Below, in pieces: positions 19,500-64,000 of a stretch of 64,000 nucleotides of DNA. A program made the position numbers and the translations under genes. The notes below the pieces were generated by a model that was given only the letters and a program-made list of their open reading frames with translations, searched no databases and was not told the DNA's origin. Position 1 is the first letter of the stretch; every line of letters begins with the position of its first letter. Source of the stretch: Candidatus Omnitrophota bacterium (GTDB lineage Bacteria > Omnitrophota > Gorgyraeia > Zapsychrales > Zapsychraceae); assembly GCA_029261055.1 (NCBI GenBank), contig JAJDCA010000018.1, positions 18,197 through 82,196 of the forward strand. The letters are read 5' to 3'.

Positions 19500-19503
19500 T
19501 AAA

Positions 19504-23989: not shown

Positions 23990-24105
23990 GCAGCTAAAAC
24001 ATAAAATAGAAAAATTTCAGAAGCTGTTAGGATAGAACAAACTCGTGTTTAGCATCGGGGAATTTCATGCTACAGCCCTCTTCCTTCAATAGCATCTCTC
24101 CGCTC

Positions 24106-26655: not shown

Positions 26656-26690
26656 GCTTTATACCAATTCCAATAAATAATTACCAAAAA

Positions 26691-26766
26691 TTACTCTCGG
26701 TTTTCTCGAACGCTTTTACGAAAGAGACAACTCTGGTAGGATTGTCTCCTAGAATGCCGAGAGTAA
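26691..26766. promoter_or_regulatory. Compound hairpin in the 121-bp spacer between paralogs 8 and 7
   Basis: Outer arms ttactctcgg / ccgagagtaa flank an inner hairpin gagacaactctggtaggattgtctc. Confidence 0.35.
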
Positions 26767-26776
26767 ATCAGAAAAA

Positions 26777-28585: not shown

Positions 28586-28688
28586 TGTTTAAAGTTTAGA
28601 GATTCTGCTTATGATGTCAAGAAGAAATACGGCCAGAACTCCCCGAAAGCCCTAAAATAAACGGCAGTTGCGTGATAGGCAAATAGAA

Positions 28689-32631: not shown

Positions 32632-34516
32632 ATCCACCCATACAATCTGCGTACATACTTTCAAGCATTTTACCCTTACGATCAATCTCTTTGACTTTAA
32701 CAGTGTTACCCAACGCTTGACAAGTATTCACAAGATGAAGATAAGATTTCTTGAAATCAGGATTTATTTTTAAAGCCTTTTTGTAATATTTCATTGCCAA
32801 TGCATGTTGATGTTTGGCGCCATAAATTAACCCAATATTATCGTAAGTCGTCGTCAAATTGGGATTTAACTTAACCGCCATTTCGTAATCAGCCAAGGCT
32901 TTGTCATACTGCTGCGTAAGATGATATGCCGTCCCTCGATTATTGTACGTTACGGCAGATGTTGGGTTTAAAACCAATGCCCGATCATAATCTCTAATGG
33001 CCAAACCATACCTCCCCTTTTTCTCAAAAAAATGCCCTCTATTGGTGTATGCTTTAACATGGTAAGGATCAATATGTAAGGCCTTATTGAAATGCGCTAG
33101 TGCTAAATCATATTTACTTTCTTTCAAATACGCGGCCCCTAAAATACCGTGACCTCTTGCTTTATTTGGCGATTTTTTCACCACATCTTCCCACAACGTC
33201 ATTTCATTGTTCCAAACTTTGTTTCGCTGAAACGTTAAATAAGAAAAAACAATCACAATCACACACGCAACCGTTACAAGCGCTCTGGAATTTTTTATGA
33301 AAACTAACAGCCCAGCTGTAAACGCCAAACACAGCCCAACGCTTGGCAAATACATGCGATGTTCAAATATGACATCCGCGATCGGAATAAAACTGGACTC
33401 CACCGACAACGTCAGAAAAAACCAAATAATGCCCAACGAAACAAGGCGATGACGTGAAAACAATTTTACGGCTGCACCTAACAATACAACGCACATCATC
33501 ATACTCAAAAAAGTCGACCATTCAAAAATACTTTGCGCCAAAGGAAAATCATAATCAAGATTTTGCCCGACTGGAAACAGGAATAACTTTAAATAAGCCA
33601 ACACCACTTTAAACTGCGTCAAAAAATAAACCGACCGCGTCATCGCCGCCACGCCACTGGATTCAGACACACTTTCCTGAGCCAACACTCCCGACAAATT
33701 AAACGAATACAAACAAGGAACAATTACAGCAAATGACAATATCAAAACAATGTAATACCACGGAACATCAATAATTCTTTTCGATCCTTCCTTTCTAAAA
33801 AAATAAAACTCCAACACAAGAATCATAAACGGCAGCGTAAACACAATTTCCTTACTGAACATACCCAGCACAGCCGCGACAGCAGCCCCCACAAAACGTA
33901 CAGACGCGATTAATCGCGTCTCTGCACATCGTCCTTTCATGTAAAGACACACCGAAAGCAAATAAAACATCGCCCCCAACAACGTAAACCGCTGCGCAAT
34001 GTACGTCACCGCCTGCGTCTGCAGAGGATGACACAGAAAAATCAAGGCTGCACACAAAGCGACTGTCGAACCGTAAACGAACCTCGGGGGTTCGGATTTC
34101 GGGAATTCAGATTTCCGAACCCCCGAGGTTCGTTTACGGTTAAAAATCTTCACCACCATCCCCACCAACCACCACACAAGCAAAGCATTCACCACATGAA
34201 TCCCTACATTCACCACATGATACCCAAACACATCCAACTTATGAAAATGGTAATTCACCGCAAACGTCAAAAACGGAATAAGCCGTCGTGCAGACAACCC
34301 CTGCGTATGCTCAAGCAAATGCTTGGTGGTATCCATCCACACAACCTTAATATTTTGAATATTTCTAATCTGCGGATTCTCCACAATGACACGCGTGTCG
34401 TCAAAATGAAAAGTGCTGTGGAAGGTGTTGGCGTAAATAATAATGCCGAGGCAAACAAGAAAAATAGCAGGAAAAAACTTTTTAATCCCCTGACATAATG
34501 TTAGATGGACTTTCAT
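32624..34516 (-). CDS. Paralog 11: PMT/TMTC-like membrane domain + TPR repeats
   Basis: TFHFDDTRVIVENPQIRN; close duplicate of paralog 10 in the membrane domain. Start uncertain: 34516, 34555 or 34576. Confidence 0.55.
   Translation of the reverse strand: MKVHLTLCQGIKKFFPAIFLVCLGIIIYANTFHSTFHFDDTRVIVENPQIRNIQNIKVVWMDTTKHLLEHTQGLSARRLIPFLTFAVNYHFHKLDVFGYHVVNVGIHVVNALLVWWLVGMVVKIFNRKRTSGVRKSEFPKSEPPRFVYGSTVALCAALIFLCHPLQTQAVTYIAQRFTLLGAMFYLLSVCLYMKGRCAETRLIASVRFVGAAVAAVLGMFSKEIVFTLPFMILVLEFYFFRKEGSKRIIDVPWYYIVLILSFAVIVPCLYSFNLSGVLAQESVSESSGVAAMTRSVYFLTQFKVVLAYLKLFLFPVGQNLDYDFPLAQSIFEWSTFLSMMMCVVLLGAAVKLFSRHRLVSLGIIWFFLTLSVESSFIPIADVIFEHRMYLPSVGLCLAFTAGLLVFIKNSRALVTVACVIVIVFSYLTFQRNKVWNNEMTLWEDVVKKSPNKARGHGILGAAYLKESKYDLALAHFNKALHIDPYHVKAYTNRGHFFEKKGRYGLAIRDYDRALVLNPTSAVTYNNRGTAYHLTQQYDKALADYEMAVKLNPNLTTTYDNIGLIYGAKHQHALAMKYYKKALKINPDFKKSYLHLVNTCQALGNTVKVKEIDRKGKMLESMYADCMGGYD
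33902..33921. repeat. 20-bp perfect ATTAAT palindrome, site 0 of paralog 11
   Basis: agacgcgattaatcgcgtct. Confidence 0.75.
34069..34141. repeat. In-frame hairpin cassette with internal partial duplication, site 1 of paralog 11
   Basis: aaccgtaaacgaacctcgggggttcgga tttcgggaattcagattt tccgaacccccgaggttcgtttacggtt; encodes KSEFPKSEPP (duplicated KSEP). Confidence 0.8.
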
Positions 34517-36935
34517 TATTGATTTGATATCCCAAAGATTGCGCCTTAAAAGCATTTTGCTGGGCCTGGGAAGCATTCCCCATTGCTTTGTAAATTAAGG
34601 CACGCTGGTAATAGGCCCCAGCATATTTCGGATTGATCGTTAAAACTTTACCATAATCAGCCAAGGCAAGACGGTATTTTTTCAACTGAGTGTACACAAC
34701 GGCACGGTTGTAATACGCCTCCCAAAAATCCGGATTAATTTTAATCGCTTTATGAAAATCTTTCAAGGCCGCAGCATGCTGCTTCAAGGCCAACTGAACC
34801 AATCCTCTATTATTGTACGCTCTCAAATACGATGAATTAATTTTAATAGCCTGGCTGTAATTTTCCAAAGCCGCGGCGTAATCTTTTTTTAATGTGTACA
34901 CAAGCCCACGATTACTCAAAAATTCTTCCTTTTTATTAGGAGACTGCCTTAATGCCTGGGTGTAATCAACCAAAGCTAAATCATATTGCCCTTGCGCTTT
35001 GTACATATTGCCCCGGTTACTGTAAAACTGGGGCATGTCCGGATTAATCGTAATCGCCTGCTTAAAATCCGCCGTCGCCAAATCATATTGACGTTTAACT
35101 TTGCGAATAATCCCGCGATTACTGTACGCCGACGCTAACAAAGGATCATTTTTAATCGCTTTATTGTAATCACTCAACGCCTGATCATACCGCCTTTGAT
35201 CCTTGTAAAAATTCCCGCGATTATTGTACGACTCAGCATTGTTGGGATCCAATTGAATACTTTGATTAAAATCTGCCAAAGCCAAATCATGCAGCCCCTT
35301 CTTTTGATACACAACGCCACGATTGTCATACCCTTTAACATTGCCAGCATCCATTTCAATGGACTTCGTCAAATATTCAAGAGCCAAATCATATTCACCT
35401 CTGGCAAAATAGGAATATCCTAAATTAAGATACGGCCGCATCTTACCGGGAGATTTCCGAACAACATCACTCCACAAAGAAACTGCATTTTGCCACACCC
35501 TGTTTCTTTGAATCGTTAAAGAAGAATAGACACTCAAAATAATCAACATGCTAACCACACATTTCTTTTTATTATTAAAACTTAAATACAATAAACACGG
35601 TAATATCATACAAAACCCGATGGATGCTAAATACAATTTATGCTCAAAAATAATATGCCGCCTTGGCACCAAATTGGCTGCCATCGTCAGGAAAAACCAA
35701 AATATCCCAAAAGAAATCACCGCATGCCGATGCCTTAATCTCATTGCTAACATTACCAACCCCGTCAAAAAAACAAAACTCAACACAACCGGCCATTCAA
35801 AGATTCCTTGCGACAATGGAAAATCATAATCAAGATTTTGCCCGATGGGAAAAACCAATAAACGAATAAAAACCACAAAAACACGTGCTTGCGTTAAAAA
35901 ATATTTCCCAAACGTAATCACATCCCCCGCATGCGACGCCGACATCTTTGGCCCGAACAATATCCCGAAAACATTAAACGAAAAAACGGCGGGGATGATC
36001 AAACAAAACAATAATAAAAATACCCAACCGTAAACCGTAAACACACCCCGGGGGTCTGTTTGAGGTCTTGTACCGTAAACAGACCCCCGGGGTGTGTTTA
36101 CGGTTCCAGTCGATCGCAAAAACATAAACTCAACAAGTAAAATCATCAAAGGCAACGTAATCACAATTTCTTTGGTGAACATCCCAAGGACAGCAGCCAC
36201 CGCAGCTCCGAAGAAATAAAAAATGGGCCGCCAATTCTTAGACGTCAGTCGTCTGCTATCAGCTGTCAGTATTTTGTTTTTTTCTGAAGACTGATGACTG
36301 ATGGCTGATGACTGATAGCTAATACGTCCCTTTATGTAAAAACACAACGAAAGTAAATAAAACAATGTCGCCAAAGACGCAAACCGCTGACTAATGTACG
36401 TCACCGCCTGAGTCTGAACAGGATGGGCCACAAAAAGCAATGCGGCAAACAAACCGTAAACGAACCCAGAAAGTTTGCGTTCGCAAACTCTCACGGTTCG
36501 TTTACGGTTAAAAGTCTTCACCAACATCCCCACCAACCACCACACCAACAAAGAATTAACCACATGAATCACAAGATTCGTCACATGATACCCAAAAACA
36601 TTTAACCCATGAAAATGATAATTTAACGCAAAGGTGAGAAAAGCGACATAACGTGAAGGCTGGCCGAGAATACTGCCAAACGTAGTAATATTTTTGAAAT
36701 CTTTAATGTAAGAATTACCAGCAACAAATTTTACATCATCAAATTGAAAAGGACTGTGGAGGGTATTTGCATAAAGGGCAACACCAAGAAGGCCTATGAC
36801 AAAAAAATAGTGACAGAAACCGTTTTTTAAAAAACCTTCACTTATTTTCTTAAAAAAGGGTCTGTCACTATTTTTTTGGCTGAACAATTTTTTGGGCCAA
36901 TCTCTTAATTCAAATAATTTTTTAACTCTGTCCAA
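34482..36935 (-). CDS. Paralog 12: PMT/TMTC-like membrane domain + TPR repeats
   Basis: PFQFDD, GQPSRYVAFLTFALNYHFH; about 12 TPR units; long N-terminal extension. Confidence 0.6.
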   Translation of the reverse strand: MDRVKKLFELRDWPKKLFSQKNSDRPFFKKISEGFLKNGFCHYFFVIGLLGVALYANTLHSPFQFDDVKFVAGNSYIKDFKNITTFGSILGQPSRYVAFLTFALNYHFHGLNVFGYHVTNLVIHVVNSLLVWWLVGMLVKTFNRKRTVRVCERKLSGFVYGLFAALLFVAHPVQTQAVTYISQRFASLATLFYLLSLCFYIKGRISYQSSAISHQSSEKNKILTADSRRLTSKNWRPIFYFFGAAVAAVLGMFTKEIVITLPLMILLVEFMFLRSTGTVNTPRGSVYGTRPQTDPRGVFTVYGWVFLLLFCLIIPAVFSFNVFGILFGPKMSASHAGDVITFGKYFLTQARVFVVFIRLLVFPIGQNLDYDFPLSQGIFEWPVVLSFVFLTGLVMLAMRLRHRHAVISFGIFWFFLTMAANLVPRRHIIFEHKLYLASIGFCMILPCLLYLSFNNKKKCVVSMLIILSVYSSLTIQRNRVWQNAVSLWSDVVRKSPGKMRPYLNLGYSYFARGEYDLALEYLTKSIEMDAGNVKGYDNRGVVYQKKGLHDLALADFNQSIQLDPNNAESYNNRGNFYKDQRRYDQALSDYNKAIKNDPLLASAYSNRGIIRKVKRQYDLATADFKQAITINPDMPQFYSNRGNMYKAQGQYDLALVDYTQALRQSPNKKEEFLSNRGLVYTLKKDYAAALENYSQAIKINSSYLRAYNNRGLVQLALKQHAAALKDFHKAIKINPDFWEAYYNRAVVYTQLKKYRLALADYGKVLTINPKYAGAYYQRALIYKAMGNASQAQQNAFKAQSLGYQINNESPSNIMSGD
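36035..36103. repeat. In-frame hairpin cassette, site 2 of paralog 12 (the paralog 9 site-1 element in inverted orientation)
   Basis: ccgtaaacacaccccgggggtctgttt gaggtcttgtaccgt aaacagacccccggggtgtgtttacgg; the loop is the reverse complement of the loop at 30250..30264. Confidence 0.85.
36241..36325. repeat. Heptamer ctgaNNN repeat with inverted copy, site 0 of paralog 12
   Basis: gtcagtcgtctgctatcagctgtcag tattttgttttttt ctgaaga ctgatga ctgatgg ctgatga ctgatag; encodes SEKNKILTADSRRL. Confidence 0.6.
36452..36509. repeat. Nested-palindrome cassette, site 1 of paralog 12
   Basis: aaccgtaaacgaacc cagaaagtttgcgttcgcaaactctca cggttcgtttacggtt. Confidence 0.75.
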
Positions 36936-37402
36936 GTTTTTTTGCCAATAATACCATCGGCCTTAAGTTCATGCTCTTTCTGAAATTTCTTAATAGCTCC
37001 ACGGGATTTACTCCCAAGTTTACCATCAATTGACCCCTCATAATACCCAGCATTTTTCAAAGCCGCCTGAACTTTTTTGGCACTCACAGCCACGCGAATA
37101 ATACGCAAACCATCTTTTTGGGCTTGTAATTTCGAAGGAGTCATTTTTAATCCTCTCCCTTCATAACTAGCCTCTTCAATCGGCTCAATAATCGGACCTG
37201 AATCCATACCTTCCACCTGACCAGCCAATTCCCGGACTTCATATCTCAATTCTTCAATCACCCGATCACGTTCGTCCACCTTCCGTTCTAACTGAGCAAC
37301 CTTAACCTGTACATTATTTGGTCCTACAGGCGGCATTGCTGTTGAACACCCCGCCGCTAATACCCCTACAATCATAACTCCGAATAATAATTTCCACTTC
37401 AT
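36905..37402 (-). CDS. Lipoprotein with coiled-coil and C-terminal peptidoglycan-binding (PG_binding_1-like) domain
   Basis: Signal and lipobox LAAGC; C-terminus GYYEGSIDGKLGSKSRGAIKKFQKEHELKADGIIGKKTW. Start ATG 37402 is preceded by an AAGGAG RBS. Confidence 0.6.
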   Translation of the reverse strand: MKWKLLFGVMIVGVLAAGCSTAMPPVGPNNVQVKVAQLERKVDERDRVIEELRYEVRELAGQVEGMDSGPIIEPIEEASYEGRGLKMTPSKLQAQKDGLRIIRVAVSAKKVQAALKNAGYYEGSIDGKLGSKSRGAIKKFQKEHELKADGIIGKKTWTELKNYLN

Positions 37403-37463
37403 ATCATTTCTCCTTTTTGTTTTCATTAATCTGAGGCGTATTTTTGGTGCCGACAGGAAAGGT

Positions 37464-39278
37464 TTATCCTTTCTTGTACGGCGAAAAAGCATCGCTCCAG
37501 TTGTAATCTGTTTCTAAAAGTAACGCCGATTGAATAAAAGCTAAATGAGAATACCCTTGAGGAAAATTCCCCGTTAACCGTCGGGTAGAAATTTCCACAT
37601 CTTCAGAAAATAATTTCAAATGATTCGCACAACTGCGAATATTGTCAAACATCTCTCGCGCTTTTTGCTCTTCTCCAATCAAATACAAAGCATTGATCAT
37701 CCAAAACGTACACACAATAAATGCATTCTCAGGCGCTCCAAATTCATCTTCGGCCACGTAACGAAATGTAAAATTATTCTTTACCAAATGCTTGTAATAC
37801 TCTTTTACCGTGCTAATCATGCGTGGATCCGTCGATGGCAAAAAACCGTAATGAAACATCAGCAAATTCGAAGCATCATAAATATCCGAACCGTAATACA
37901 TAGTAAAGGCTTGTAATTTTTCATTCCACCCATTTTTTAGAATATCCACTTTGATATCTTCGGCCATCTGCGTCCATTCCTTTACATATTGCGTTTTATT
38001 TACAAATTTTGCAATTTTCACCGCTCGGTCAATGGCCACCCAATTCATCATCTTTGAATGCACGTAATGCTGCATGGCCTCGCGCCGCTCCCAAATACCA
38101 CTGTCCTTTTCTTGCCAAATATCTCGCACACGATTAACGAGTGAACGTGTCATCGTCCAAATTTCTTCATTCACCTGAAAACTTGCGCGTTTGTTAATAA
38201 CAAAATACGTGTAAATGGTCTCAATAAGTTCCCCGTAAAGATCATTTTGTTTTTGCAGGTACGCTTCATTTCCAATGCGCACAGGAGCAGAATTTTTATA
38301 TCCGGGAAGATGGTCTAAAATACGTTCCGTCAAATCTTCTTCGCCATTAATGCCATACATGACACGAATATCTTCATGCTTTAATTGCATACGATTCAAA
38401 ATAAATTCAATAAACCCATCCGCCGACTGAATATGCCCGATGCGCACGTACAAATCAATGATCATCGCTGCATCCCGAATCCAACAATACCGGTAATCCC
38501 AATTACGATCCTTACCGATGATCTCCGGCAACGACGTGGTGACCGCCGCCAGGACAGCCCCTGTTCTTTGATACATCAATAGTTTTAATGTAACCGCAGA
38601 ACGCAAAACCTCTTCTTTGTATTTTTTAGGATACCGCGTCTTTTGTACCCAATCTAACCAATAAGACTTTGTTTTTTCATATTCCAAAAATAATTTATCA
38701 TTTTCCACAGGTTCCAATTTTTCGTGATACGAAAGCAAAAAATAAGAATATTCTTCCAACTCAATAGGCTCGCCATCCAAAACTTTTTGATAATCCAAAT
38801 TGCTGTACACGTAAAAACTATTGTAATGGCCCTTCCCTTCCTGAGACATTATTTTAATGTAATCATTTTGAATTTTACATATCGCATCGCTAAGGGCATA
38901 ATTGGGCTTCGGAATTAATTCCACTTTGATTTTTGGTTTCCCAGAAATCACTTTCAATTTCCGGTGAAGCTCCGATGGACAATAATAATTTCCACGGCTC
39001 GTTTCAAAGCGGGGCATGTAATCATTCACCTCAAAAATACCATCTTTAGTTGTAAAAATTGTTTTTAAAATAGCCGTGTGAATAATGTAATCTTGCTTCA
39101 CGGCTACCGTATCTACACCCGTTATTTTAAAATACCCCCCATTATTTTCATCAAGGATCCGCCCAAAAACAGAAGCCGAATCAAAATAAGGCAGACATAA
39201 CCATTCAACGCTACATTCAGAATTCACCAAAGCGGCACTGGAACAGTTGCCGATAATACCGTAATCATAATTATTCAT
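37464..39278 (-). CDS. Glycoside hydrolase family 15 (glucoamylase/trehalase-like)
   Basis: N-terminus MNNYDYGIIGNCSSAALV...EWLCLPYFDSASVFGRIL typical of GH15-related proteins; 604 aa. Confidence 0.65.
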   Translation of the reverse strand: MNNYDYGIIGNCSSAALVNSECSVEWLCLPYFDSASVFGRILDENNGGYFKITGVDTVAVKQDYIIHTAILKTIFTTKDGIFEVNDYMPRFETSRGNYYCPSELHRKLKVISGKPKIKVELIPKPNYALSDAICKIQNDYIKIMSQEGKGHYNSFYVYSNLDYQKVLDGEPIELEEYSYFLLSYHEKLEPVENDKLFLEYEKTKSYWLDWVQKTRYPKKYKEEVLRSAVTLKLLMYQRTGAVLAAVTTSLPEIIGKDRNWDYRYCWIRDAAMIIDLYVRIGHIQSADGFIEFILNRMQLKHEDIRVMYGINGEEDLTERILDHLPGYKNSAPVRIGNEAYLQKQNDLYGELIETIYTYFVINKRASFQVNEEIWTMTRSLVNRVRDIWQEKDSGIWERREAMQHYVHSKMMNWVAIDRAVKIAKFVNKTQYVKEWTQMAEDIKVDILKNGWNEKLQAFTMYYGSDIYDASNLLMFHYGFLPSTDPRMISTVKEYYKHLVKNNFTFRYVAEDEFGAPENAFIVCTFWMINALYLIGEEQKAREMFDNIRSCANHLKLFSEDVEISTRRLTGNFPQGYSHLAFIQSALLLETDYNWSDAFSPYKKG

Positions 39279-39283
39279 AACGA

Positions 39284-39360
39284 CCCCTTAATGGGCATGA
39301 TAAATCATGCCCCTACAAACGACACTCCTCGTACGGGCATGATTTATCATGCCCCTAAAA
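39284..39360. repeat. Two intergenic REP-like hairpins (gggcatgat NN atcatgccc) between GH15 and the BatC-like gene
   Basis: ccccttaatGGGCATGATaaATCATGCCCctac ... cgtacGGGCATGATttATCATGCCCctaaaa. Confidence 0.75.
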
Positions 39361-41378: not shown

Positions 41379-41396
41379 AATTTAAAAACCATTAAC

Positions 41397-46183: not shown

Positions 46184-46212
46184 CTGTACGGGCGGTTCGC
46201 GAACCGCCCCTA
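46184..46212. repeat. REP-like GC-core hairpin between the moxR start and the upstream gene stop
   Basis: gtacgggcggttcgcgaaccgcccctac; a sister of the copy at 52722. Confidence 0.7.
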
Positions 46213-46224
46213 CTCCAATTTTTT

Positions 46225-52106: not shown

Positions 52107-52130
52107 TTTGAATTGGGTTTGATAAATCAA

Positions 52131-52236
52131 ACCCCTACGCCCCATGTAAATTTGCCCTACGTACAGGCATGATTCATCATGCCCCTTATTGTAAACCTGC
52201 CCTACGTACGGGCATGATTCATCATGCCCCTTATTG
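52131..52236. repeat. Tandem (about 45-bp period) REP-like hairpin repeats between the CE4 deacetylase and YqeY genes
   Basis: gccctacgtacaggcatgattcatcatgccccttattg then gccctacgtacgggcatgattcatcatgccccttattg, preceded by a partial cccctacg. Confidence 0.75.
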
Positions 52237-52695: not shown

Positions 52696-52721
52696 TTCAT
52701 CTCCTATGTTTACTGTACGGG

Positions 52722-52750
52722 CGGCTCGCGAGCCGCCCCTACGTTAAAGG
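52722..52750. repeat. REP-like GC-core hairpin (gggcggctcgcgagccgccc) with tacgg/cctacg flanks
   Basis: ctgtacGGGCGGCTCGCGAGCCGCCCctacg lies between the YqeY and DUF167 genes; a near-identical copy occurs at 46184..46212 (gtacgggcggttcgcgaaccgcccctac). Confidence 0.7.
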
Positions 52751-52963
52751 ACGTATCTTAATCACTTTTTCCCTAGATTTCAACCCCTTTGTAATCGTCA
52801 CCTGACGCTTACGCACATCGAAATGTTCGGCCAAAACCTTGATCAAAGCCTTATTCGCCTTACCATCCACCGCCGGCGCAGTCAAATAAACCTTCAACAC
52901 CTTATCTTCAACCTTAACTAAATCCCTCTTAGCTTGGGGGATAACTTTAATAGAATATTGCAT
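52739..52963 (-). CDS. DUF167 (YggU-like) protein
   Basis: 74 aa; KVYLTAPAVDGKANKALIKVLAEHF pattern. Confidence 0.65.
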   Translation of the reverse strand: MQYSIKVIPQAKRDLVKVEDKVLKVYLTAPAVDGKANKALIKVLAEHFDVRKRQVTITKGLKSREKVIKIRPLT

Positions 52964-53744: not shown

Positions 53745-56700
53745 TTAATTATCTCTACCTAATATAATCGGAAGCTCAGCCGCCGGGACAGGAGTTATTT
53801 GAAAAATGAACGGTGTCAGGCCGTTGAGAGGCTGCTGCAGATCAATGTTCGGCGTACAGCCGGCATCATCTTCGTCAAGGCAAGGAACAAATCCCTCAGG
53901 CCAATCAAACCCCACCGCATCCCCACTCGTCTGCAAATCCAGCCCAGCCGGGTTAAAATCAATCCCACCAGTCTTATTGGTAATCATGGAATCATCCTCC
54001 GATAACTCGACGGATTTGGGGATATCCAAATATTTAAAAACTTGGGGGATATCATCTTCATCTAACAGATGCTCATGCCACTCTCTGATAATTACTCTTT
54101 TTATTTTATCGAAATCATTTATTAAACCTGTTAACTTCTCTGACGCCTCAGAAACTTTTGTTAAGAGTTCTTCAGTTAAATCTGCATGAGCTTCAATTAC
54201 ATTTAATAACCAACTCAAAGATACAATAGGATTCACGAAATCCGACGCAATATTTTCTGGATTATCTGCCGTGTTAAAGACAGCCAATGCATTGTAAACT
54301 GGGTCAAAATCTTCGAAACCTTTTTCTAACTGCTTATTCTTTAAAATAACCCTAAATTGTTCGAACTGATCCCCTAGCGTCGTAGCCCTTTCTTTTACTG
54401 TTTTATTGTTTTCTTTTTTTTCATACGCTGCCCTTAATTGATGAACCGACAGCTCGATATTTTTCACCAAATCACGCATACCACCATTTAACCATTCGTT
54501 CATAACCTTAAAAAAATCACGACGTTTCTGCCCAGTGAACTCCCAATATTCACCTTTTTCATCTTTCTTTTTTACCATCATTAAAAAATTAGCGGATGTT
54601 TCTGCTTCCGATGACAATTTAAGAGAAGCCGGAATATTCCAATATGCTACATTACCCGCATCGCTGCTTTTAATTACACCTAAAACAATTTTTTTTATTT
54701 TATTAATATCGTTAAGCGGCTGCCTCAACTTGGGTAATCCTCGTTTAAAATTATTGATATTATCTATTAATATTTTTTTATTCTTCTTTTCTTTATCCTT
54801 TTGCTCCTCTATGTCTAACTTTACCATCACAAACCATGAAATTATCGACTCTTTTCTCCTTGGCAATATGCGCACAAAAGTATTTTGCAAGGCATTAAAA
54901 TCTTCACCCTGAGCACTAAGACCGTACCAGCGTTTTGGTACTATTCCCATCACCTTAACTATCTGATCTATTTGGTATGATATCTCCGGACCATCAACAT
55001 CCGAAGTCTCCAGCATCTCCTCTAAGCCAAGCATCAACACATTCACTTTTTTTAAATCATCCTTCATGCCCTTAACCCACTTTTTCTTGTAATCTATTTT
55101 TTGTGCCGATAACTTTGTCGTTTGCGCAGCCTCTTCCTTTTGTTTATTTACCATCATTGAAGGATTAACAGATGCTTTAACAGATCCTTCAATGTCAAGC
55201 TCTCGATAATTCTCAAGCACCGCCTTCATCTCATCAACATGCTCTTTTAGTTTCCCTGTTTCATACTTCTTTAACTGCTGCTCAATTTCCTCCTTTGACT
55301 TTTTCTTAAGTATCACCTTTTTTATTTTCTGAAGAGAGTCCGTCAAGAGCGATATCTTTTGAGATGTCTCGGAAAGAACGTCCCATGTAGATTGCTGTAA
55401 ACTTCCTGTTTGTTGAGAAACCCCCATTGCAAAAGCCAGCCCTGTAACAGCTTGCATTTCGTTATTATTTATTGCGTTAAATAACGGAACCAAAACGTTA
55501 TCTTTTTGAATACTTGTAGCGATATACATAAGCTTTTGCAACAAAATAGTTTGCGCACCTGCCATGCTTTTTATTTTTCCTTTCTTACTTTTCACTTCTC
55601 CATTTCTCAAAACTTCCTCAAGCTGATTTGTATTTTTTTGAATATCGCTAACCACAGGTGCAACTTTCTCTAGCCAGTCATCTTTAGCTGTGAGAAAGGT
55701 CTCTAATCTATCTCCTTCCAATTCAACAATGTTGCTTGCCATTGACAAATCATTCTCAACCATAGCAACTTCTACACCTTTTGACGAAATCACAGCCGCT
55801 TCTACTTTGTCCATATCATGATTAATAGACTCGGTCAATTTAGCTAAATCCACGAATGTTTCATTATATTGCATCATCGAAAAACCTGTCAGAGCCATTC
55901 CCCCCGAAAAATATTTCCGTGGGACGATTGTTTGGGTAACGGGGTCGTAGTCTTCGCGGATGGTGTCGTAGACGCCTTTTTTGAAGGCGTCGAGGTATTG
56001 TTGGTAAATTTTTTCGTTGGCGTTTTTGTCAGCAATGTCTACACCGTTGACTTTGTTTTGGCCGACGTAGTTTTTTCCCAGGAAACTCTCTTTGAGGTTG
56101 CGCTTGTACCATGTGGCGAGGATGAGGGAATGGTAAATTTGGCGGAGCTGGGTGAAGTTGGCGCCTTCGTTGACTTCTTGTTCGATTTCGGGGAGGATGA
56201 TATCGCGAATGATTGATGTTGTAATATTGGAATACGTAGGGGCAGCCCCCTGTGGCTGCCCTTTCACCGGGCGGGCACGGGGGCCCGCCCCTACGTTATT
56301 TGACATGGCGACATAATCCTCCTCCAACATGACCTTCAACCGCGACGCCACCACAAACGCCACATTGTCATACACGTAAACTTCTGCGGTCTCCGGCACG
56401 ATCCAAACCTTGTTAAAAGTGTCGACCGGCACATCAGTTATCCCGTACTTTGCATACGCCTCTTCGTGCACACGATCCCAAAATTCTCCCCCTAACGCAT
56501 CCTCCGGATACATCAACGTGGCGGTCAACTGCTTAAGCAAATAATCCTGAGCCAGAAGGTCCCGCCCCATTTCCGTATGTCCGAATTTCTCAGGAATAAC
56601 GCGATCAGCTTCATACGGTGAAAGGTTCACCCACAAATCTTCTTCAGGCACGGTCAATGCTGCCAAAAAATATTTAATCAGCTTATTGTATTCATCCTTC

Positions 56701-56963
56701 ACGGCCTCCCCGGCTAATCCCGCCTCGCCTTGCTCCATAAAAAAGTTAAACCGAAACGGATTCTCCGGAAATACCTTTACCCCCTTCATCATCGCAGGCG
56801 CAAACATTTCACTTGGCCGCACCATGGTCCCCGGCACCGGCATCATACTCTCTTGAGCCTGCACCTTTGGTAAAGGCCCCATCGTACCGAATGCAAATAC
56901 AAAAATTACACCCCACACGATGGCCCGAGAAAAACGCGCACATTTTATCCTAGGACTGTTCAC
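53745..56963 (-). CDS. Giant secreted protein A (paralog of 60561..64000), function unknown
   Basis: Signal peptide; shares long identical blocks with paralog B (LSPYEAD..IPE.FG.TEMGRDLLAQDYLLKQLTA.LMYPE); coiled-coil-rich centre; carries an in-frame REP-like insert at 56233..56295. Confidence 0.5.
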   Translation of the reverse strand: MNSPRIKCARFSRAIVWGVIFVFAFGTMGPLPKVQAQESMMPVPGTMVRPSEMFAPAMMKGVKVFPENPFRFNFFMEQGEAGLAGEAVKDEYNKLIKYFLAALTVPEEDLWVNLSPYEADRVIPEKFGHTEMGRDLLAQDYLLKQLTATLMYPEDALGGEFWDRVHEEAYAKYGITDVPVDTFNKVWIVPETAEVYVYDNVAFVVASRLKVMLEEDYVAMSNNVGAGPRARPVKGQPQGAAPTYSNITTSIIRDIILPEIEQEVNEGANFTQLRQIYHSLILATWYKRNLKESFLGKNYVGQNKVNGVDIADKNANEKIYQQYLDAFKKGVYDTIREDYDPVTQTIVPRKYFSGGMALTGFSMMQYNETFVDLAKLTESINHDMDKVEAAVISSKGVEVAMVENDLSMASNIVELEGDRLETFLTAKDDWLEKVAPVVSDIQKNTNQLEEVLRNGEVKSKKGKIKSMAGAQTILLQKLMYIATSIQKDNVLVPLFNAINNNEMQAVTGLAFAMGVSQQTGSLQQSTWDVLSETSQKISLLTDSLQKIKKVILKKKSKEEIEQQLKKYETGKLKEHVDEMKAVLENYRELDIEGSVKASVNPSMMVNKQKEEAAQTTKLSAQKIDYKKKWVKGMKDDLKKVNVLMLGLEEMLETSDVDGPEISYQIDQIVKVMGIVPKRWYGLSAQGEDFNALQNTFVRILPRRKESIISWFVMVKLDIEEQKDKEKKNKKILIDNINNFKRGLPKLRQPLNDINKIKKIVLGVIKSSDAGNVAYWNIPASLKLSSEAETSANFLMMVKKKDEKGEYWEFTGQKRRDFFKVMNEWLNGGMRDLVKNIELSVHQLRAAYEKKENNKTVKERATTLGDQFEQFRVILKNKQLEKGFEDFDPVYNALAVFNTADNPENIASDFVNPIVSLSWLLNVIEAHADLTEELLTKVSEASEKLTGLINDFDKIKRVIIREWHEHLLDEDDIPQVFKYLDIPKSVELSEDDSMITNKTGGIDFNPAGLDLQTSGDAVGFDWPEGFVPCLDEDDAGCTPNIDLQQPLNGLTPFIFQITPVPAAELPIILGRDN
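56233..56295. repeat. 63-bp REP-like double hairpin inserted in-frame inside giant protein A
   Basis: tacgtaGGGGCAGCCccctgtGGCTGCCCtttcaccGGGCGGGCacgggGGCCCGCCCctacg has the same tacg/ctacg flanks as the intergenic REP-like family; it encodes GAGPRARPVKGQPQGAAPTY, which is absent at the equivalent position of paralog B. Confidence 0.7.
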
Positions 56964-59254: not shown

Positions 59255-60622
59255 ATGTTTAATAGAGCGATAATTAAGGAATTAGAGTCTTGGGCAAAGA
59301 AAGTATCCCGAAAACCTCTTATTTTACGTGGAGCTCGCCAAGTCGGCAAAACAACCGCCGTAGAAATATTTGCCAAACAGTTTAAGCAGTACATTTATTT
59401 AAATCTTGATCTGGCCGCCGACCGTGATTTATTTGAAAAAGGCTACCCTATTGAAGAACTGATTCAGGCCATATTCTTTCAAAAAGATAAAAAATACGGC
59501 ATAAAGAATACATTAATATTTATTGATGAAATACAAAATTCTCCCCAGGCCGTTTCCTCATTGCGATATTTTTATGAGCACACAAACGATCTGTTTATTA
59601 TCGCAGCCGGGTCATTGTTAGAGTCATTAATAGACACTCACATAAGCTTTCCGGTCGGACGTGTAGAATATCTTTACATGAAACCATTAACATTTTATGA
59701 ATATCTCGAGGCTATTGAAGATAACGCCTGCCTCAAAGCCGTAAAAGAAATCCCCTGCCCACGCATTGCTCAGGAAAAACTAATAAAAAAGTTTTATCAA
59801 TACACCCTCATAGGTGGAATGCCTGAGGTAGTGCGCACTTATGTTGAAACCGGAGGGTTGCAAGAGTTAAAATCTATCTATGAATCCTTATTGCGATCAT
59901 ATCTTGACGATGTCGAAAAGTACGCGCGTAGCAAATCCATCGCACCGCTCATCCGACACGCCATCGAAAGTTCTTTTTATGAAGCCGGCAGCAGAATACG
60001 ATTTGAAGGATTTGGAAAATCATCTTACAAATCACGCGAGATGTCCGAAGCCCTTAAAACACTCGAAAAAGCCATGTTGATTCATTTAATGTATCCATCA
60101 ACCGCTGTAAAGCTTCCCATTATTGCTGATCATAAAAAATCCCCAAGACTGCATATCCTCGATACAGGTCTGGTTAATTATTTTGTTGGTTTACAAAAAG
60201 AGATTTTCGGCACACAGGATTTACACAGTATTTATGCCGGAAAAATTGCTGAACACATCGTAGGGCAAGAGCTTTTGGCTCATTGTCAAAATCTTAATGA
60301 AAAAGTACAATTCTGGGTCAGAGAAAAAAAGCAGTCCAATGCCCAAGTAGATTACATTATTTCATTTGAAAAATATGTGATACCTATTGAAGTAAAACTG
60401 GGAAGCTCCGGACGTTTGCGTTCTTTGCACGAATTTATCGACCGGGCCCCGCATAATTATGCGGTAAGGGTGTATGCAGGAGAGTTAAAAATTGATGCTG
60501 TAAAAACCCTTAAAGGAAAACCTTTCTTTCTCCTAAATCTTCCTTTTTATTTGGTAGGATCTATCCGACAGTATCTAGCCTGGTTCTTAGAAAATACTCC
60601 CGCTCATCCATCCAAAAACTGA
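59255..60622 (+). CDS. AAA ATPase with DUF4143-type C-terminal domain
   Basis: LILRGARQVGKTT Walker A, IFIDEIQ Walker B; the ORF track begins at a TTG (59225), so the first ATG (59255) is taken as start. Confidence 0.65.
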   Translation: MFNRAIIKELESWAKKVSRKPLILRGARQVGKTTAVEIFAKQFKQYIYLNLDLAADRDLFEKGYPIEELIQAIFFQKDKKYGIKNTLIFIDEIQNSPQAVSSLRYFYEHTNDLFIIAAGSLLESLIDTHISFPVGRVEYLYMKPLTFYEYLEAIEDNACLKAVKEIPCPRIAQEKLIKKFYQYTLIGGMPEVVRTYVETGGLQELKSIYESLLRSYLDDVEKYARSKSIAPLIRHAIESSFYEAGSRIRFEGFGKSSYKSREMSEALKTLEKAMLIHLMYPSTAVKLPIIADHKKSPRLHILDTGLVNYFVGLQKEIFGTQDLHSIYAGKIAEHIVGQELLAHCQNLNEKVQFWVREKKQSNAQVDYIISFEKYVIPIEVKLGSSGRLRSLHEFIDRAPHNYAVRVYAGELKIDAVKTLKGKPFFLLNLPFYLVGSIRQYLAWFLENTPAHPSKN

Positions 60623-63600
60623 TATCGTGCGAGAAGGTGTTGCTATTGTCAAGAGGTAAGGTATCCGCAAAACCAAGAAGCTGGGGTAAATTAACAGGTA
60701 ACACGCGAAGAATAATCGGCAAGAATCCCAACACCCTCATACTCAAATCCACATCCTGATCCATCATCGGCAACGGCACCCCATTCCCATCGCGCTTAAT
60801 CTCCAAATCCAACATCGCCGAATCAAGATTAATCCCCCCGACGACCTCAGCTTTGTCAATGGGTTCGGCGTCGGCAAGAACGGCCAAATCATCCTTCTTA
60901 CCGTCAAAAAGCTTAAGAATATCATTTAAATCCTGGACGCTCAGTCCTGACGGCGTTAAAACATTCTTAAATGTTGCAATAATATTGCTAATTGTTTTCT
61001 GATCATAAAATTTAAAATTAGGTTTCTTGAGCCCCGCTGATATTATTTCATTCTCAAATATTTTCAGCATTTCAGAATACGAGAGACTATTCACTATTGA
61101 GCGCCCCCTTCTCACGTCATTTTCCAGTTCACTTGTTAAATCTTTCATCACACCCCATACATCCTCCGCCTTTTTTTTCTTATCCCCCGACAACTCATTA
61201 ATATGTCGCTCAATTTTCTCTGCTTCCTCCACCGCCATGGATGAATCAAAACGAGATTTAAAATCCTTTATTTCTTTCAAACTATCCTCAGTAAGCGTTC
61301 CTTGAGACTGAAGTTCGTTTTCAACGTCCTGAACTAATTTCTTATTTTCCTCCTTATTATCCTCCCCCAAATTAATTTCTTTCTTACCAATGCTAAGAAA
61401 GCCATCTCCTTTTTTAACAACCATTTTCACCTTTTCAGAGAAAACCTTCTTAGGCCCTTGATAATTGACATCTCTAGAACCTCTCCTTTGAGAAGAAGTA
61501 TCTCTATCTCTTATCGATCCTAAATGACGCTCAACGTTAACGGTAATGAAAAACGGAGTCTCTGTTAAAAAAGTCACAGTCTCTTCCTGGGAAATCATGG
61601 CATCATCAGCTGCAAGCATTTCAATCCCTGCAAAGACAACAAATAAAGTTTTATCGAAGCGATCTGGAACGTATGTAATTTTAACCTGCATGGATCTCGT
61701 AATATCCTTAATGAACTTTACCATGAACTCATCCCTAGACCTTACATCCATGTCTAACTTACCCATATCGTGACTTTCAGATTGTGTAATAATATCACCT
61801 TTTGCATCTTTAAAAAAATGTTGTACTCTACCCGTCTCTTTATTAACCTGCTTTTCTATTGACCATATTAAGTTTTTACCTTTAAAAATTTCAAATTTAT
61901 ACCCTTCACTTTCATTCATTGGCACTTTCTTTGCTACAGCGATCCTCTCATTATTTTTATTGAGATAAATAATTTCACCATTTTCCTCCATAACCACACC
62001 CTTTTTCGTGCCATTATCAGTAAGATTAAAGCCGTACTTTTCACCTCTAAATACTGGATTATTCAATGAAAAATTTCTTCCTAACTCAGGAGCACTTGCA
62101 TTTTCGACTATTTTAACCTCTGGCACATGATGATAATAACTTGCCGAATTCACACCCACCAATATCACTCCTGCAGCAATCCCAACAATTGCAACTATAT
62201 TCATCAAACTCAGCATGGCTAAATCATAGTTCTCATCTAAACTTTCAGGCATCTCGTCTAATGCCTGCTCAGCGAGCGTTTTTACATCCGATTTTTTACT
62301 CTTATTCTTAATGGACGTAAACGTAAACTCAAACCGAGCTTGAACAAAGTCATTTGATTGTTCTTTAAATTGACCATAAATATTGATCAATTCCTGCAGA
62401 TCATTTAGCGTAAAAGTCCCGTTCTCCAAACCGTCCAAAACAATCGAAGATATGGAGGCTGCCGTTGTTTCAACATCTTCAAATCTTAAGGCCTTATGCA
62501 TCCGTTGCACGACAGTAAGCCCCTTAAGCTTTGGCCTGGTACCCTTTAAATTAAAGTAGTCAATAATCGTCGAGGGCGCTTTCGTGTAAAGACCCTCTTC
62601 TGCATATTTTGCCCCCTTGTCTGTAAACTGTATGGTTTCCAGTGTTTTCTGATTTATAACCATAATAATATCTTCTGCTATTGAATCCCGCCCCATATTT
62701 GTACTCAAAACGGACCTTGCGCGTGAAAACACTTCATACTCACTCCCATTGAACGAAAATTCCTCCTTCTTCTTATTAGCCACCGCCTTCAACAAAGGCT
62801 CCGCTAATTGTTCATGACTTAATCCTTGCTCCTTCACATATTCCGTATGTTTGTCTAAAACATCCTGTAAATTTTCGCCATACTTTACAAGACCTTTTCG
62901 CCGTGCATACGTTTCAAGCTCTTCCCTGGAAACCATAGAGTCGTCTTGATCCTCCGTTAAAAATGGAGCTCTTTTTACTTCTTCTACCAAATAAGCATTG
63001 TCACTAGAAATTCCCGAAAGTCTAACTTCCACTACAAGCGCGTCGTCTTTTGCTGATGTAATCGCAGCCTTATTTGCAAAACTTAACATGCTAGGATTAA
63101 AAATATTGCTGCCAAGAGCTACACTCATTCCTCCCGAGAAATATTTGCGTGGGACGATTTGCTGGCTGGTTGGATCGTAGTCTTCCTTAATGTAGTCGTA
63201 CACGCCTTTTTTGAAGGATTCGACGTACTGATTGTAAATTTTTTGATTAATTTGTTTGTCTTGTGTATCTACGCCTTTGGTTTTATTTTGATCAACGTAC
63301 ACTTGTCCCAATAAAGTCCGAGAATTTTCAACTCCTACGGTTAATTTTTTCTTGTACCAGGTAGCTAAAATGACGGAATGATAAATTTGACGGAGGATGG
63401 CAAATGTCTCACCTTCATTGACTTCACGTTCGATTTCAGGAATGAGAATTTCACGAATTACGTCCGAAGAAACGCCACTGATAATTTCTGTATTATTCTG
63501 ATTTAAATAATCCAAACCATATTGTTCGCTGCCTAAATTTTTCTCCATGGCCACGTAGTCTTCTTCCAACATGACCTTAAGATGACTATCCACCAAATAC

Positions 63601-64000
63601 GCCGTTGCACTTTCTTCGTGTTCATACACCGCTGCTTTTTCAGGTACAATCCAAATTTTATTAAACGTGTTCATCGGGATGTCGGTGGTGCCAAATTTTG
63701 CGTATGCTTTTTCATGCACACGCGTCCAAAATGTTTCGCCTAATTCTTCTTCGGGATACATCAAACTGGCAGTCAATTGTTTAAGCAAATAATCTTGCGC
63801 AAGAAGGTCTCGGCCCATTTCGGTATCTCCAAAACCTTCGGGAATAATGCGGTCGGCTTCATACGGACTAAGGTTGACCCACATCTCTTTTTCCGGCACA
63901 GTTAATCCGGCCATGAAATATTTAATCAGCGTATTCGCCTCCGCCTTTAAAGCATCGCCTTCTAAATGGGTATCCCCTTTATTAATAATAAAATCAAACA
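60561..64000 (-). CDS. Giant secreted protein B (paralog of A); N-terminus lies beyond the window
   Basis: The reading frame stays open from 63914 to 64000 and the translation (..EANTLIKYFMAGLTVPEKEMWVNLSPYEAD) aligns to residues about 65-100 of paralog A. Confidence 0.5.
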   Translation of the reverse strand, partial: FDFIINKGDTHLEGDALKAEANTLIKYFMAGLTVPEKEMWVNLSPYEADRIIPEGFGDTEMGRDLLAQDYLLKQLTASLMYPEEELGETFWTRVHEKAYAKFGTTDIPMNTFNKIWIVPEKAAVYEHEESATAYLVDSHLKVMLEEDYVAMEKNLGSEQYGLDYLNQNNTEIISGVSSDVIREILIPEIEREVNEGETFAILRQIYHSVILATWYKKKLTVGVENSRTLLGQVYVDQNKTKGVDTQDKQINQKIYNQYVESFKKGVYDYIKEDYDPTSQQIVPRKYFSGGMSVALGSNIFNPSMLSFANKAAITSAKDDALVVEVRLSGISSDNAYLVEEVKRAPFLTEDQDDSMVSREELETYARRKGLVKYGENLQDVLDKHTEYVKEQGLSHEQLAEPLLKAVANKKKEEFSFNGSEYEVFSRARSVLSTNMGRDSIAEDIIMVINQKTLETIQFTDKGAKYAEEGLYTKAPSTIIDYFNLKGTRPKLKGLTVVQRMHKALRFEDVETTAASISSIVLDGLENGTFTLNDLQELINIYGQFKEQSNDFVQARFEFTFTSIKNKSKKSDVKTLAEQALDEMPESLDENYDLAMLSLMNIVAIVGIAAGVILVGVNSASYYHHVPEVKIVENASAPELGRNFSLNNPVFRGEKYGFNLTDNGTKKGVVMEENGEIIYLNKNNERIAVAKKVPMNESEGYKFEIFKGKNLIWSIEKQVNKETGRVQHFFKDAKGDIITQSESHDMGKLDMDVRSRDEFMVKFIKDITRSMQVKITYVPDRFDKTLFVVFAGIEMLAADDAMISQEETVTFLTETPFFITVNVERHLGSIRDRDTSSQRRGSRDVNYQGPKKVFSEKVKMVVKKGDGFLSIGKKEINLGEDNKEENKKLVQDVENELQSQGTLTEDSLKEIKDFKSRFDSSMAVEEAEKIERHINELSGDKKKKAEDVWGVMKDLTSELENDVRRGRSIVNSLSYSEMLKIFENEIISAGLKKPNFKFYDQKTISNIIATFKNVLTPSGLSVQDLNDILKLFDGKKDDLAVLADAEPIDKAEVVGGINLDSAMLDLEIKRDGNGVPLPMMDQDVDLSMRVLGFLPIILRVLPVNLPQLLGFADTLPLDNSNTFSHDISFWMDEREYFLRTRLDTVG

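Follow-up and report, generated by a model that had tools for sequence, protein, structure and literature searches.

A probable GTAG-tagged REP dimer lying in frame within a hypervariable loop of an Omnitrophota protein

How a double hairpin resembling those of the neighbouring spacers comes to lie inside a long open reading frame is the question raised by gene A, which is located in a 64-kb stretch of Omnitrophota DNA (the window). An earlier note on this DNA placed a 63-bp double hairpin in frame within the coding sequence and read it as a REP-like element that had colonised the gene; the position and the frame were confirmed by the sequence and the ORF. The layout of the gene product includes a signal-peptide-like N-terminus, an N-terminal domain of Omnitrophota type, conserved and about 370 aa long, for which there are roughly 1,366 homologs, and a unique C-terminal region; the doublet encodes residues V224-Y244, (N)VGAGPRARPVKGQPQGAAPTY. 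It is likely that the segment is a GTAG-tagged REP dimer of REPIN architecture, sharing one repeat population with the neighbouring intergenic hairpins, and that it was transposed into a permissive loop or replaced the occupant of that loop. The features are listed in Table 1.

Table 1. Positions of gene A, its in-frame doublet, the intergenic hairpin units and the equivalent loop of paralog B in the window
Feature	Position	Strand	Description
Gene A	53745..56963	-	Uninterrupted ORF of 1072 codons, 1072 aa; hosts the doublet
In-frame REP dimer (REPIN-like)	56233..56295	-	63 bp, TACGTAGGGGCAGCCCCCTGTGGCTGCCCTTTCACCGGGCGGGCACGGGGGCCCGCCCCTACG; in gene A
REP unit 1	56236..56261	+	GTAG tag (56236-56239) and hairpin (56240-56261) GGGCAGCC/ccctgt/GGCTGCCC
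REP unit 2	56269..56294	-	GTAG tag (56294-56291, minus strand) and hairpin (56269-56290) GGGCGGGC/ccccgt/GCCCGCCC
Two intergenic REP units	39289..39357	-	Core GGGCATGAT-nn-ATCATGCCC; hairpins 39293-39312 and 39335-39354
Intergenic REP unit	46186..46213	-	GTAC-GGGCGGTTCGCGAACCGCCC-CTAC; GTAG on the minus strand; hairpin 46190-46209; 63-nt spacer
Three REP units	52115..52233	-	52115-52138, 52161-52188 and 52206-52233; hairpins 52115-52134, 52166-52183 and 52210-52229
Intergenic REP unit	52715..52742	-	GTAC-GGGCGGCTCGCGAGCCGCCC-CTAC; hairpin 52719-52738; the GTAG tag gives the TAG stop of a 74-aa ORF (52739..52963)
Equivalent loop of paralog B	63465..63560	-	DYVAMEKNLGSEQYGLDYLNQNNTEIISGVSS; AT-rich, no hairpin (-13.8 kcal/mol)

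The doublet is composed of a GTAG-hairpin, a 7-nt spacer and a hairpin-CTAC, and its coding strand reads C-GTAG-GGGCGGGC-ccccgt-GCCCGCCC-ggtgaaa-GGGCAGCC-acaggg-GGCTGCCC-CTAC-GTA. Both hairpins have 8-bp stems, and the two units form an inverted pair with outward tags, which folds as a single 63-nt hairpin. Direct comparison showed the units to be identical at 21 of 26 positions; four of the five differences constitute two compensatory stem pairs, and the remaining one falls in the loop. The GC content of the element is 76% versus 42% for gene A; no other 63-mer of the window is as GC-rich, and nowhere else in it do 63 nt reach 70% GC. Its predicted folding as RNA yields -48.8 kcal/mol (z -5.9) and its folding as DNA a z of -4.8, with 0 of 200 shuffles folding as well; this is the strongest 66-nt structure of the 3.2-kb gene, the next best reaching -26.5. 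A search for an identical copy of either hairpin found none elsewhere, the closest sequence being a compensatory variant in L045. No recorded product matches protein A exactly, and a genome-contig scan with the 26-nt pattern hit one MAG contig, an unrelated one. Another GTAG-plus-hairpin of gene A (55968-55991) is family-like but was treated as a chance occurrence, because it encodes the conserved motif YLDAFKKGVYD.

The spacer hairpins listed in the earlier note are real, although two of its coordinates were a few bases off, the tagged units occupying 46186-46213 and 52715-52742. All nine units of the window are GC-rich palindromes with perfect stems of 8-10 bp and loops of 0-6 nt. Seven of them lie in spacers bordered by co-directional genes: the pair at 39289..39357 fills a 93-nt spacer between two such genes, and the group at 52115..52233, in which units 52161-52188 and 52206-52233 represent a tandem duplication of about 45 bp, is found upstream of a deacetylase gene or within its doubtful N-terminal extension. 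The GTAG tag adjoins both hairpins of gene A and the units at 39316, 46213, 52138 and 52742, and three window units possess degenerate tags (CTAA, CTTA). In all four GTAG-tagged intergenic singlets the tag is on the transcribed strand. The window copies also carry an extra conserved GTAC beyond the hairpin, the transcribed strand having the form GTAG-hairpin-GTAC. The intergenic copies are arranged in tandem in the same orientation and not inverted, unlike the gene A doublet. The 13-nt right flank CGCCCCTACGTTA is identical in the doublet and in the 52715-52742 unit. The pattern GGGC-N8-24-GCCCCTA matches seven times in the window, compared with 0.09 matches expected by chance; GTAGGGGC matches five times (0.59 expected) and GTACGGGC seven times (0.69 expected). 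The Rfam search of the window returned zero family matches.

Since GC-rich stem-loops immediately 3' of co-directional genes could be intrinsic transcription terminators or attenuators, the gene A copy might be regarded as an internal attenuator. This is very improbable: the transcribed minus strand shows no T-run after any of the family hairpins, for which reason the terminator reading was rejected. A terminator scan flagged family members on the antisense strand only (52166-52183, 52210-52229 and a 5-pair stem at 56279-56292 within REP unit 2), and the conserved GTAG and GTAC flanks are foreign to terminators.

The relation of these hairpins to REP sequences is indicated by metagenomic data. 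At least 120 metagenome contigs, whose GC content spans 33-69%, contain the intergenic core GGCATGAT-NN-ATCATGCC, and 131 of 132 copies have GTAG on at least one side. Only 12 of 133 copies are located inside long open frames, compared with 49% of random positions; thus, 91% of copies lie outside such frames, versus 51% of random positions. In two contigs, L037 and L043, the core hairpins surround genes of RAYT-like Y1 transposases. The products of these genes match Pfam Y1_Tnp (23.5 and 22.1 bits, respectively) and NCBIfam REP_Tyr_transpos (66 and 65 bits), and their homologs bear the JGI name RayT; the best PDB match, TnpA-REP 4ER8, is non-significant (E = 0.12, 15 bits). Both contigs probably originate from phyla other than Omnitrophota, the named homologs belonging to Anaerolineae. 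The RAYT gene of L043 contains a GTAG dimer with the same architecture as the gene A doublet. RAYT genes of the family tied to these hairpins may nearly always carry their own REP in frame. No RAYT gene was found in the 64-kb window or in the 6.8 kb past its left end, and the 10.4-kb Logan contig of SRR15505515 (L130) contains neither further REPs nor a RAYT gene. The region covered thus totals about 71 kb, with nine units in the window and none in the further 6.8 kb.

REP units would be non-autonomous. The tyrosine transposases associated with REPs (Y1/HuH) are believed to act on single-stranded DNA, recognising the tag together with its hairpin and mobilising the unit without target duplication. 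A RAYT encoded by this genome is presumably responsible for the movement of the gene A element, which would have arrived by transposition in this lineage. The suggestion that the terminal tacg is a target duplication was not upheld. The repeat occurs at both ends because the ends of the element are inverted, ACGTAG...CTACGT, and the apparent duplication is a by-product of this inversion and of the self-complementary ACGT. CTACGT(AC) is also present at intergenic copies and tandem junctions, and no target duplication was seen at the loop elements of homologs. Transposition of the Y1/HuH type leaves no target duplication.

The host segment, delimited by the anchors EEDYVAM and IIREI, is hypervariable. 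AlphaFold (pTM 0.76) models residues 226-244 as a coil with a pLDDT of 56-65 that links helices 214-225 and 245-266, and the element sits in frame within a variable, low-confidence loop. Measured from LKVMLEEDY to EVNEG, a wider pair of anchors, the loop of 122 proteins ranges from 45 to 76 residues with a mode of 57, and the loop of paralog B is of this commonest type. The sequence of paralog B in this place is indeed unrelated and shorter, as had been claimed, but by two residues only; since the two loops are of near-equal length, the statement that the doublet adds 21 codons misdescribes the difference between the paralogs. The closest homolog of protein A is only 60% identical, which makes an empty-site comparison impossible, and neither a close ortholog nor an empty site defining the insertion was found. 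Without the 21 codons, the loop would be shorter than in any homolog. Taken with the missing empty site, this means that a simple insertion is not what happened, and that the element occupies a hypervariable loop in the manner of a replacement, not of a clean addition relative to paralog B. An artefact or chimera of assembly, which might be considered given that the window apparently comes from a fragmented short-read assembly and that the Logan contig measures 10.4 kb, is hardly credible: the frame and the homology run seamlessly through both sides, and analogous in-loop hairpins are present in independent ENA, JGI and NCBI assemblies.

The best 120 homologs do not contain the peptide encoded by the gene A element. 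Palindromic elements of at least three kinds, belonging to different families, were found in the equivalent loop DNA of nine homologs, which were picked for suspicious-looking peptides and give a biased estimate of occupancy frequency. Four of these loops bear GTAG REPs: L123, L124 and L126 have GTAG-hairpin-spacer-hairpin-CTAC dimers with the architecture of A, and L122 has a singlet. The loop of L125 contains the very GGGCATGATaaATCATGCCC hairpin in a different frame, while both paralogs of L127, as well as L128 and L129, contain other palindromic elements, one of which occurs twice within a single gene (L127b). The left junction and frame AAY|GTA GGG, encoding N|VG, are common to A, L123, L124 and L126. 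In the clade of loops ending in 'LGSQ', empty loops interleave with loops bearing different elements. Placements of a GC-rich 9-bp stem that could encode the peptide number 3.3 per 100 loop residues versus 1.7 elsewhere, but this peptide-only estimate misses known cases, is too unspecific and was dropped.

Two further explanations must be weighed against these data. The hairpin might be a selected structure and not a selfish one, such as an mRNA element involved in translation pausing between subdomains, in transcript stabilisation or processing, or in protein binding, kept by compensatory change. The two compensatory stem pairs, the many homologs with strong hairpins at the same loop, the shared left junction and frame and the uniform strand of the tags in the intergenic singlets agree with such a function. 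It is unlikely, however, as most homologs, paralog B included, have no hairpin there, the occupants come from at least three unrelated element families in differing frames (for example, L125), the same hairpin types are largely extragenic and RAYT-associated, and no Rfam family matches. The palindromes could also have formed locally; template switching or slippage, for instance, might have produced them in a loop of low complexity that evolves fast, and their likeness to the intergenic hairpins would then be convergent. The loop is hypervariable in both length and sequence, neither a target duplication nor an identical donor copy is seen, and a likeness to the GTAGG tag is already present in the ancestral motif N-[VLM]-G (AAY GTN GGN). 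This origin is improbable as well, because exact family tags stand at both ends, 13 nt are identical to the flank of an intergenic unit, the same dimer architecture lies within the L043 RAYT gene, an element occurs twice in L127b, as copies would, and the tagged pattern is hardly expected by chance. The reading of a REP-like element colonising the gene in frame is supported by the shared tag-plus-GC-clamp architecture, the common flank, the GTAG-tagged core and the hairpins in the loops of homologs. Neither of the observations that, by the earlier note, would weaken this reading was made: the peptide is absent from the best 120 homologs, and the family is present elsewhere.

It seems that a REP copy would arrive in the hypervariable inter-helix surface loop of the N-terminal domain of A, or displace an earlier occupant. 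Its retention may reflect a length of 21 codons with no stop in frame, and a product in the form of a Gly/Ala/Pro/Arg-rich coil tolerated by the fold; the encoded peptide is probably neutral. Singlets and dimers of REPs, along with unrelated long palindromes, would have filled the equivalent loop of homologs repeatedly, making it a permissive sink in which hairpin elements collect. A bolder suggestion, which can be made only tentatively, is that one or two loops of an Omnitrophota-wide multi-copy extracytoplasmic domain are preferred landing pads for GTAG REP singlets and dimers and at least two unrelated long-hairpin families, where a string of ancestral codons mimicking the REP tag, AAC-GTA-GG (N-V-G), may guide the landing.

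GTAG-tagged REPs, their BIME and REPIN dimers and the RAYT (TnpA-REP) transposases have been described in detail (Nunvar 2010, PMC2817692; Bertels & Rainey 2011, PMC3116915; Di Nocera 2013, PMC3733652; Corneloup 2021, PMC8266576). The family described here resembles them in having a GC-rich palindrome of 20-26 nt with a GTAG tag, no target duplication, a mainly extragenic location with co-directional genes on either side, dimers of inverted units and several variants of the stem per genome, and in that the core of the window hairpins surrounds RAYT-like genes in other genomes. It differs in the host phylum, Omnitrophota, in being known without the RAYT of its own genome, and in the extra GTAC and the short, perfect stems of the window copies. 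In-frame GTAG REPs within genes, over half of them in dimers or groups, encode 20-30 residues, and intragenic GTAG or CGTC REPs are found, for example, in uvrA and DNA-repair genes of Opitutus terrae (Di Nocera 2013, PMC3733652). Like the gene A element, such REPs form in-frame dimers encoding 20-30 residues in otherwise intact genes, and they were argued to occupy tolerant loops or linkers; here, in contrast, a single loop of a multi-copy, phylum-wide domain is refilled by REP variants and non-REP palindromes.

Protein genes also harbour Rickettsia palindromic elements (RPEs) within their reading frame (Ogata et al. 2000, as cited in PMC3733652), and intragenic CGTC repeats of R. conorii were equated with RPE-4 and RPE-6 (Di Nocera 2013, PMC3733652), whereas the gene A dimer has the GTAG tag. 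In both cases selfish palindromic DNA is translated as an additional surface peptide of functional proteins. RPEs are longer, about 100-150 bp versus the 63-bp dimer, and are mostly Rickettsia-specific. Bacterial MITEs in coding regions (Correia/NEMIS, Nezha, ERIC) are likewise small non-autonomous repeats that at times extend or interrupt ORFs. MITEs are larger, and as products of DDE transposases they are bounded by terminal inverted repeats and target duplications; the gene A element has neither MITE-type terminal inverted repeats nor a target duplication. In-frame GTAG REP dimers and RPEs having been described before, the gene A case is another instance of a known phenomenon, and it is the repeated occupancy of one loop across a protein family that looks new.

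In-frame REP colonisation, reported for Rickettsia, Opitutus and a few others, is thereby extended to Omnitrophota, and gene A provides a clear natural example of a tolerant loop gathering translated selfish DNA. For annotators, it explains odd Gly/Ala/Pro/Arg-rich metagenomic peptides such as VGAG..P.PT, GQPQG..APT and GMIHHAPT. The repeated occupancy of the loop offers a tractable system for distinguishing targeted REP insertion from insertion merely filtered by selection. If the loops do serve as landing pads, coding novelty and length variation in surface loops would arise systematically from selfish hairpins.

The doublet inside gene A comprises two hairpins with 8-bp stems separated by 7 nt, each with a GTAG tag on its outer side (left on the plus strand, right on the minus strand). 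It is enclosed by an intact ORF of 1072 codons (53745..56963, minus strand) and encodes the peptide V224–Y244, VGAGPRARPVKGQPQGAAPTY. The GC content of the doublet is 76% versus 42% for gene A and about 40% for the window, where no other 63-nt segment reaches 70%. It folds as a single long hairpin (RNA −48.8 kcal/mol, z −5.9; DNA z −4.8). Nothing else in the gene comes close: the runner-up among 66-nt windows reaches −26.5 kcal/mol. The two units are identical at 21 of 26 positions; of the five mismatches, one falls in the loop and the other four make up two compensatory pairs in the stem. The right flank, CGCCCCTACGTTA, shares a 13-nt identity with the right flank of the intergenic unit 52715-52742. 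The open frame, the tags and the fold confirm the observation of the earlier note that a hairpin related to the intergenic family is placed here in frame, and the doublet is probably an in-frame dimer of GTAG REPs, short GC-rich hairpin units carrying that tag.

Repeat and palindrome features of the window and of other contigs
Feature	Position	Sequence or architecture
In-gene doublet (plus-strand reading)	56233..56295	TAC-GTAG-GGGCAGCC-ccctgt-GGCTGCCC-tttcacc-GGGCGGGC-acgggg-GCCCGCCC-CTAC-G
Intergenic hairpins	39293-39312, 39335-39354, 52210-52229	GGGCATGAT-nn-ATCATGCCC
Intergenic hairpins	46190-46209, 52719-52738	GGGCGGYTCG/CGARCCGCCC
Intergenic hairpin	52115-52134	GGGTTTGAT-aa-ATCAAACCC
Intergenic hairpin	52166-52183	GGCATGAT-tc-ATCATGCC
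Other intergenic palindrome	47237-47264	AAAAGTACGTACGCGCGTACGTACTTTT; 28 nt, perfect, terminator-like on both strands
Other intergenic palindrome	41394-41433	AACGCACCTCGTAGGTG-6-CACCTACGAGGTGCGTT; T-runs follow on minus strand
58-73-nt palindromes (examples)	14241-14298, 16579-16648, 21644-21703, 26256-26328, 27857-27914	AACCGTAAACGAACCTCGGGGGTTCGGA tt TCCGAACCCCCGAGGTTCGTTTACGGTT and variants
20-nt palindrome and variant	28006-28033, 32019-32046, 33898-33925, 18795-18814	AGACGCGATTAATCGCGTCT, flanks GTAC...CT[AG]C; variant AGCCGCGATTAATCGCGGCT
RAYT-like genes	L037 1628-2242 (−); L043 712-1284 (−)	
Loops of L123, L124, L126		GTAG-hairpin-spacer-hairpin-CTAC dimers, own stems
Loop of L122		GTAG-GGACACGGCATGCCGTGCCC-CTAC singlet
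Loop of L125		GGGCATGATaaATCATGCCC, intergenic core of the window, different frame, without GTAG
Loops of L127 (both paralogs)		Other palindromes
Loop of L128		60-nt hairpin, GTCATTCTGAGCGAAGCGAAG type
Loop of L129		75-nt hairpin, GGTCAGTGGTCAG type
L127a hairpin, ~residue 70 and loop	L127 3734-3754, 4201-4222	CCCTCCCC/GGGGAGGG
L127b palindrome, loop and before IYQQYL motif	within L127 10703-12200	~50 nt, twice
L128 hairpin, ~residue 75	L128 10225-10243	GTAG hairpin

Nearly all genes of the window are on the minus strand, and homologs of their products bear the names Candidatus Omnitrophica or Omnitrophota. Seven further hairpins of 18–20 nt, with perfect stems and G/C clamps, occupy short spacers between co-directional genes, and the earlier note placed them with an error of no more than a few bases. 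Along the transcribed strand, the order in the best-preserved units is GTAG-hairpin-GTAC. Tag-based patterns occur 7, 5 and 7 times in the window versus 0.09, 0.59 and 0.69 expected by chance, respectively. In the window no T-run follows the family hairpins 3′ on the transcribed strand, and an Rfam search returned no match for them. The GTAG tag of unit 52715-52742 (tag 52739-52742) provides the TAG stop of an adjoining 74-residue ORF (52739..52963), setting the 3′ end of that gene. The two other intergenic palindromes both include GTAC or GTAG motifs.

The exact pattern GGCATGATNNATCATGCCCCT was found in at least 120 metagenome contigs with a GC content of 33–69%, and one genome contig (L001) contains tandem GTAG-hairpin-GTAC units with differing stems. 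GTAG flanks at least one side in 131 of the 132 metagenome copies listed, which the search pattern partly forced, and both sides in 36. Only 12 of 133 listed copies sit in long open frames, which here means 60 or more open codons on both sides, versus 49% of random positions. In two contigs, L037 and L043, several core copies surround a Y1/HuH transposase gene. The products match Pfam Y1_Tnp (23.5 and 22.1 bits) and the NCBIfam model ‘REP-associated tyrosine transposase’ (RAYT; 66 and 65 bits, under the equivalog cut-off of 80 bits); among PDB entries, E. coli TnpA-REP 4ER8 ranks first without reaching significance (E = 0.12, 15 bits), and many homologs are named RayT by JGI. With its GTAG tags, extragenic bias and nearby RAYT-like genes, the core family has the traits that define the GTAG REP superfamily and its RAYTs (PMC3733652, PMC2817692, PMC3116915). 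No RAYT gene was seen within the window or the 6.8 kb past its left end, so the transposase link in this particular genome is one we infer.

A REP-encoded peptide also lies in frame in nearly all of the best 120 RAYT-like Y1 transposase homologs (P0121–P0240), in the loop immediately past the HuH motif (e.g., RGMIHHAPT, RGMACHAPT, VGARHAVPLQ, VGAQCIAPLP, VGATHASPLQ, VGATRRVAPT); some contain 2–6 tandem copies, giving loops of 55–205 residues. DNA confirms a single hairpin in L037 and, in L043, a dimer with the layout GTAG-hairpin-19 nt-hairpin-CTAC. Each transposase gene seems to contain its own REP variant; no mention of a REP inside a RAYT gene was found in the literature searched.

Genes A and B have about 370 N-terminal residues in common (48% identity). 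The earlier note described 21 codons added relative to a shorter, unrelated sequence in B. The sequence in B is indeed unrelated and AT-rich, but it is of nearly equal length, and a BLASTP gap of 2 residues suffices across the doublet; this is not a clean insertion. The EEDYVAM–IIREI segment is hypervariable among the best 120 homologs, all at most 60% identical. When the loop is delimited by the outer anchors LKVMLEEDY and EVNEG, homologs have 45–76 residues (mode 57) and A has 59; removal of the 21 codons would leave 38, fewer than in any homolog. The event was replacement-like or came after earlier occupants of the loop. In an AlphaFold model of A residues 1–380 (pTM 0.76), the doublet is a coil (pLDDT 56–65) flanked by helices 214–225 and 245–266. 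The suggested ‘tacg’ target duplication was rejected: the repeat is a consequence of the inverted ends ACGTAG...CTACGT, and further REP copies and tandem junctions also show CTACGT(AC). No target duplication was found in the homolog loop elements examined in DNA; its absence is expected for Y1 transposition. In-frame colonisation of coding sequence by hairpins is nevertheless supported.

By tblastn, A residues 45–331 match 63998..63120, including the region 63915-64000 upstream of the listed ATG of B (63914); B therefore leaves the window, and 60561..63914 is less than its full length. Between A and B (57914-60622) are two divergent genes for AAA_14 + DUF4143 ATPases and one for an MscS channel, and a PIN/MazE-type antitoxin pair lies directly downstream of A (52991-53676).

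The same loop is occupied in homologs of A. The gene's strongest structure lies in the loop in A and in seven of eight homolog genes, which were selected by the hairpin-like look of their loop peptides; the exception, L129, has it at the 3′ end. B and L127b, which served as unselected controls, have it outside the loop. Given this selection bias, what can be said is that hairpin elements were confirmed in DNA in at least nine loops and that, by peptide appearance, about 15 of 122 are occupied. In a neighbour-joining ordering with the loop excluded, empty loops (QKHEGIQSKQAQSKDTNQLGSQ) adjoin relatives with differing elements at the same place, which argues for repeated gains and not a single ancient gain. 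The junction AAY|GTA GGG (N|VG) is common to A, L123, L124 and L126, and N-[VLM]-G occurs there in many homologs without a hairpin; the shared junction may reflect either insertion targeted to a string resembling GTAG or a tag kept by shared ancestry. Permissive sites beyond the loop exist in L127a, L127b and L128.

About 13 paralogous genes in tandem (9858..39278) each contain a perfect or near-perfect palindrome of 58–73 nt (within 11614-36509), placed at a point that is conserved among them; some of these palindromes have a GTAG-hairpin-CTAC core. They lie 107–146 codons into the maximal ORFs, and since a conserved ATG (MLV...) directly precedes and a hydrophobic segment follows, they may mark true 5′ ends or leaders and not mid-gene insertions. 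A 20-nt perfect palindrome with the unit architecture of the intergenic family is in frame at equivalent positions in four paralogs (peptide ETRLIAS).

The Omnitrophota genome papers searched make no mention of palindromes, hairpins or RAYTs. The classic precedent is that of the RPEs of Rickettsia. Intragenic REPs with GTAG or CGTC tags have also been described, with the highest numbers in Opitutus terrae and Rickettsia conorii; over half of them were dimers or groups encoding 20–30 residues, and they were argued to occupy tolerant loops (Di Nocera et al. 2013, PMC3733652). Given these precedents, the in-gene doublet represents a known class of mechanism in a new phylum, to which the repeated use of a single loop by elements of several families adds an apparently undescribed feature.
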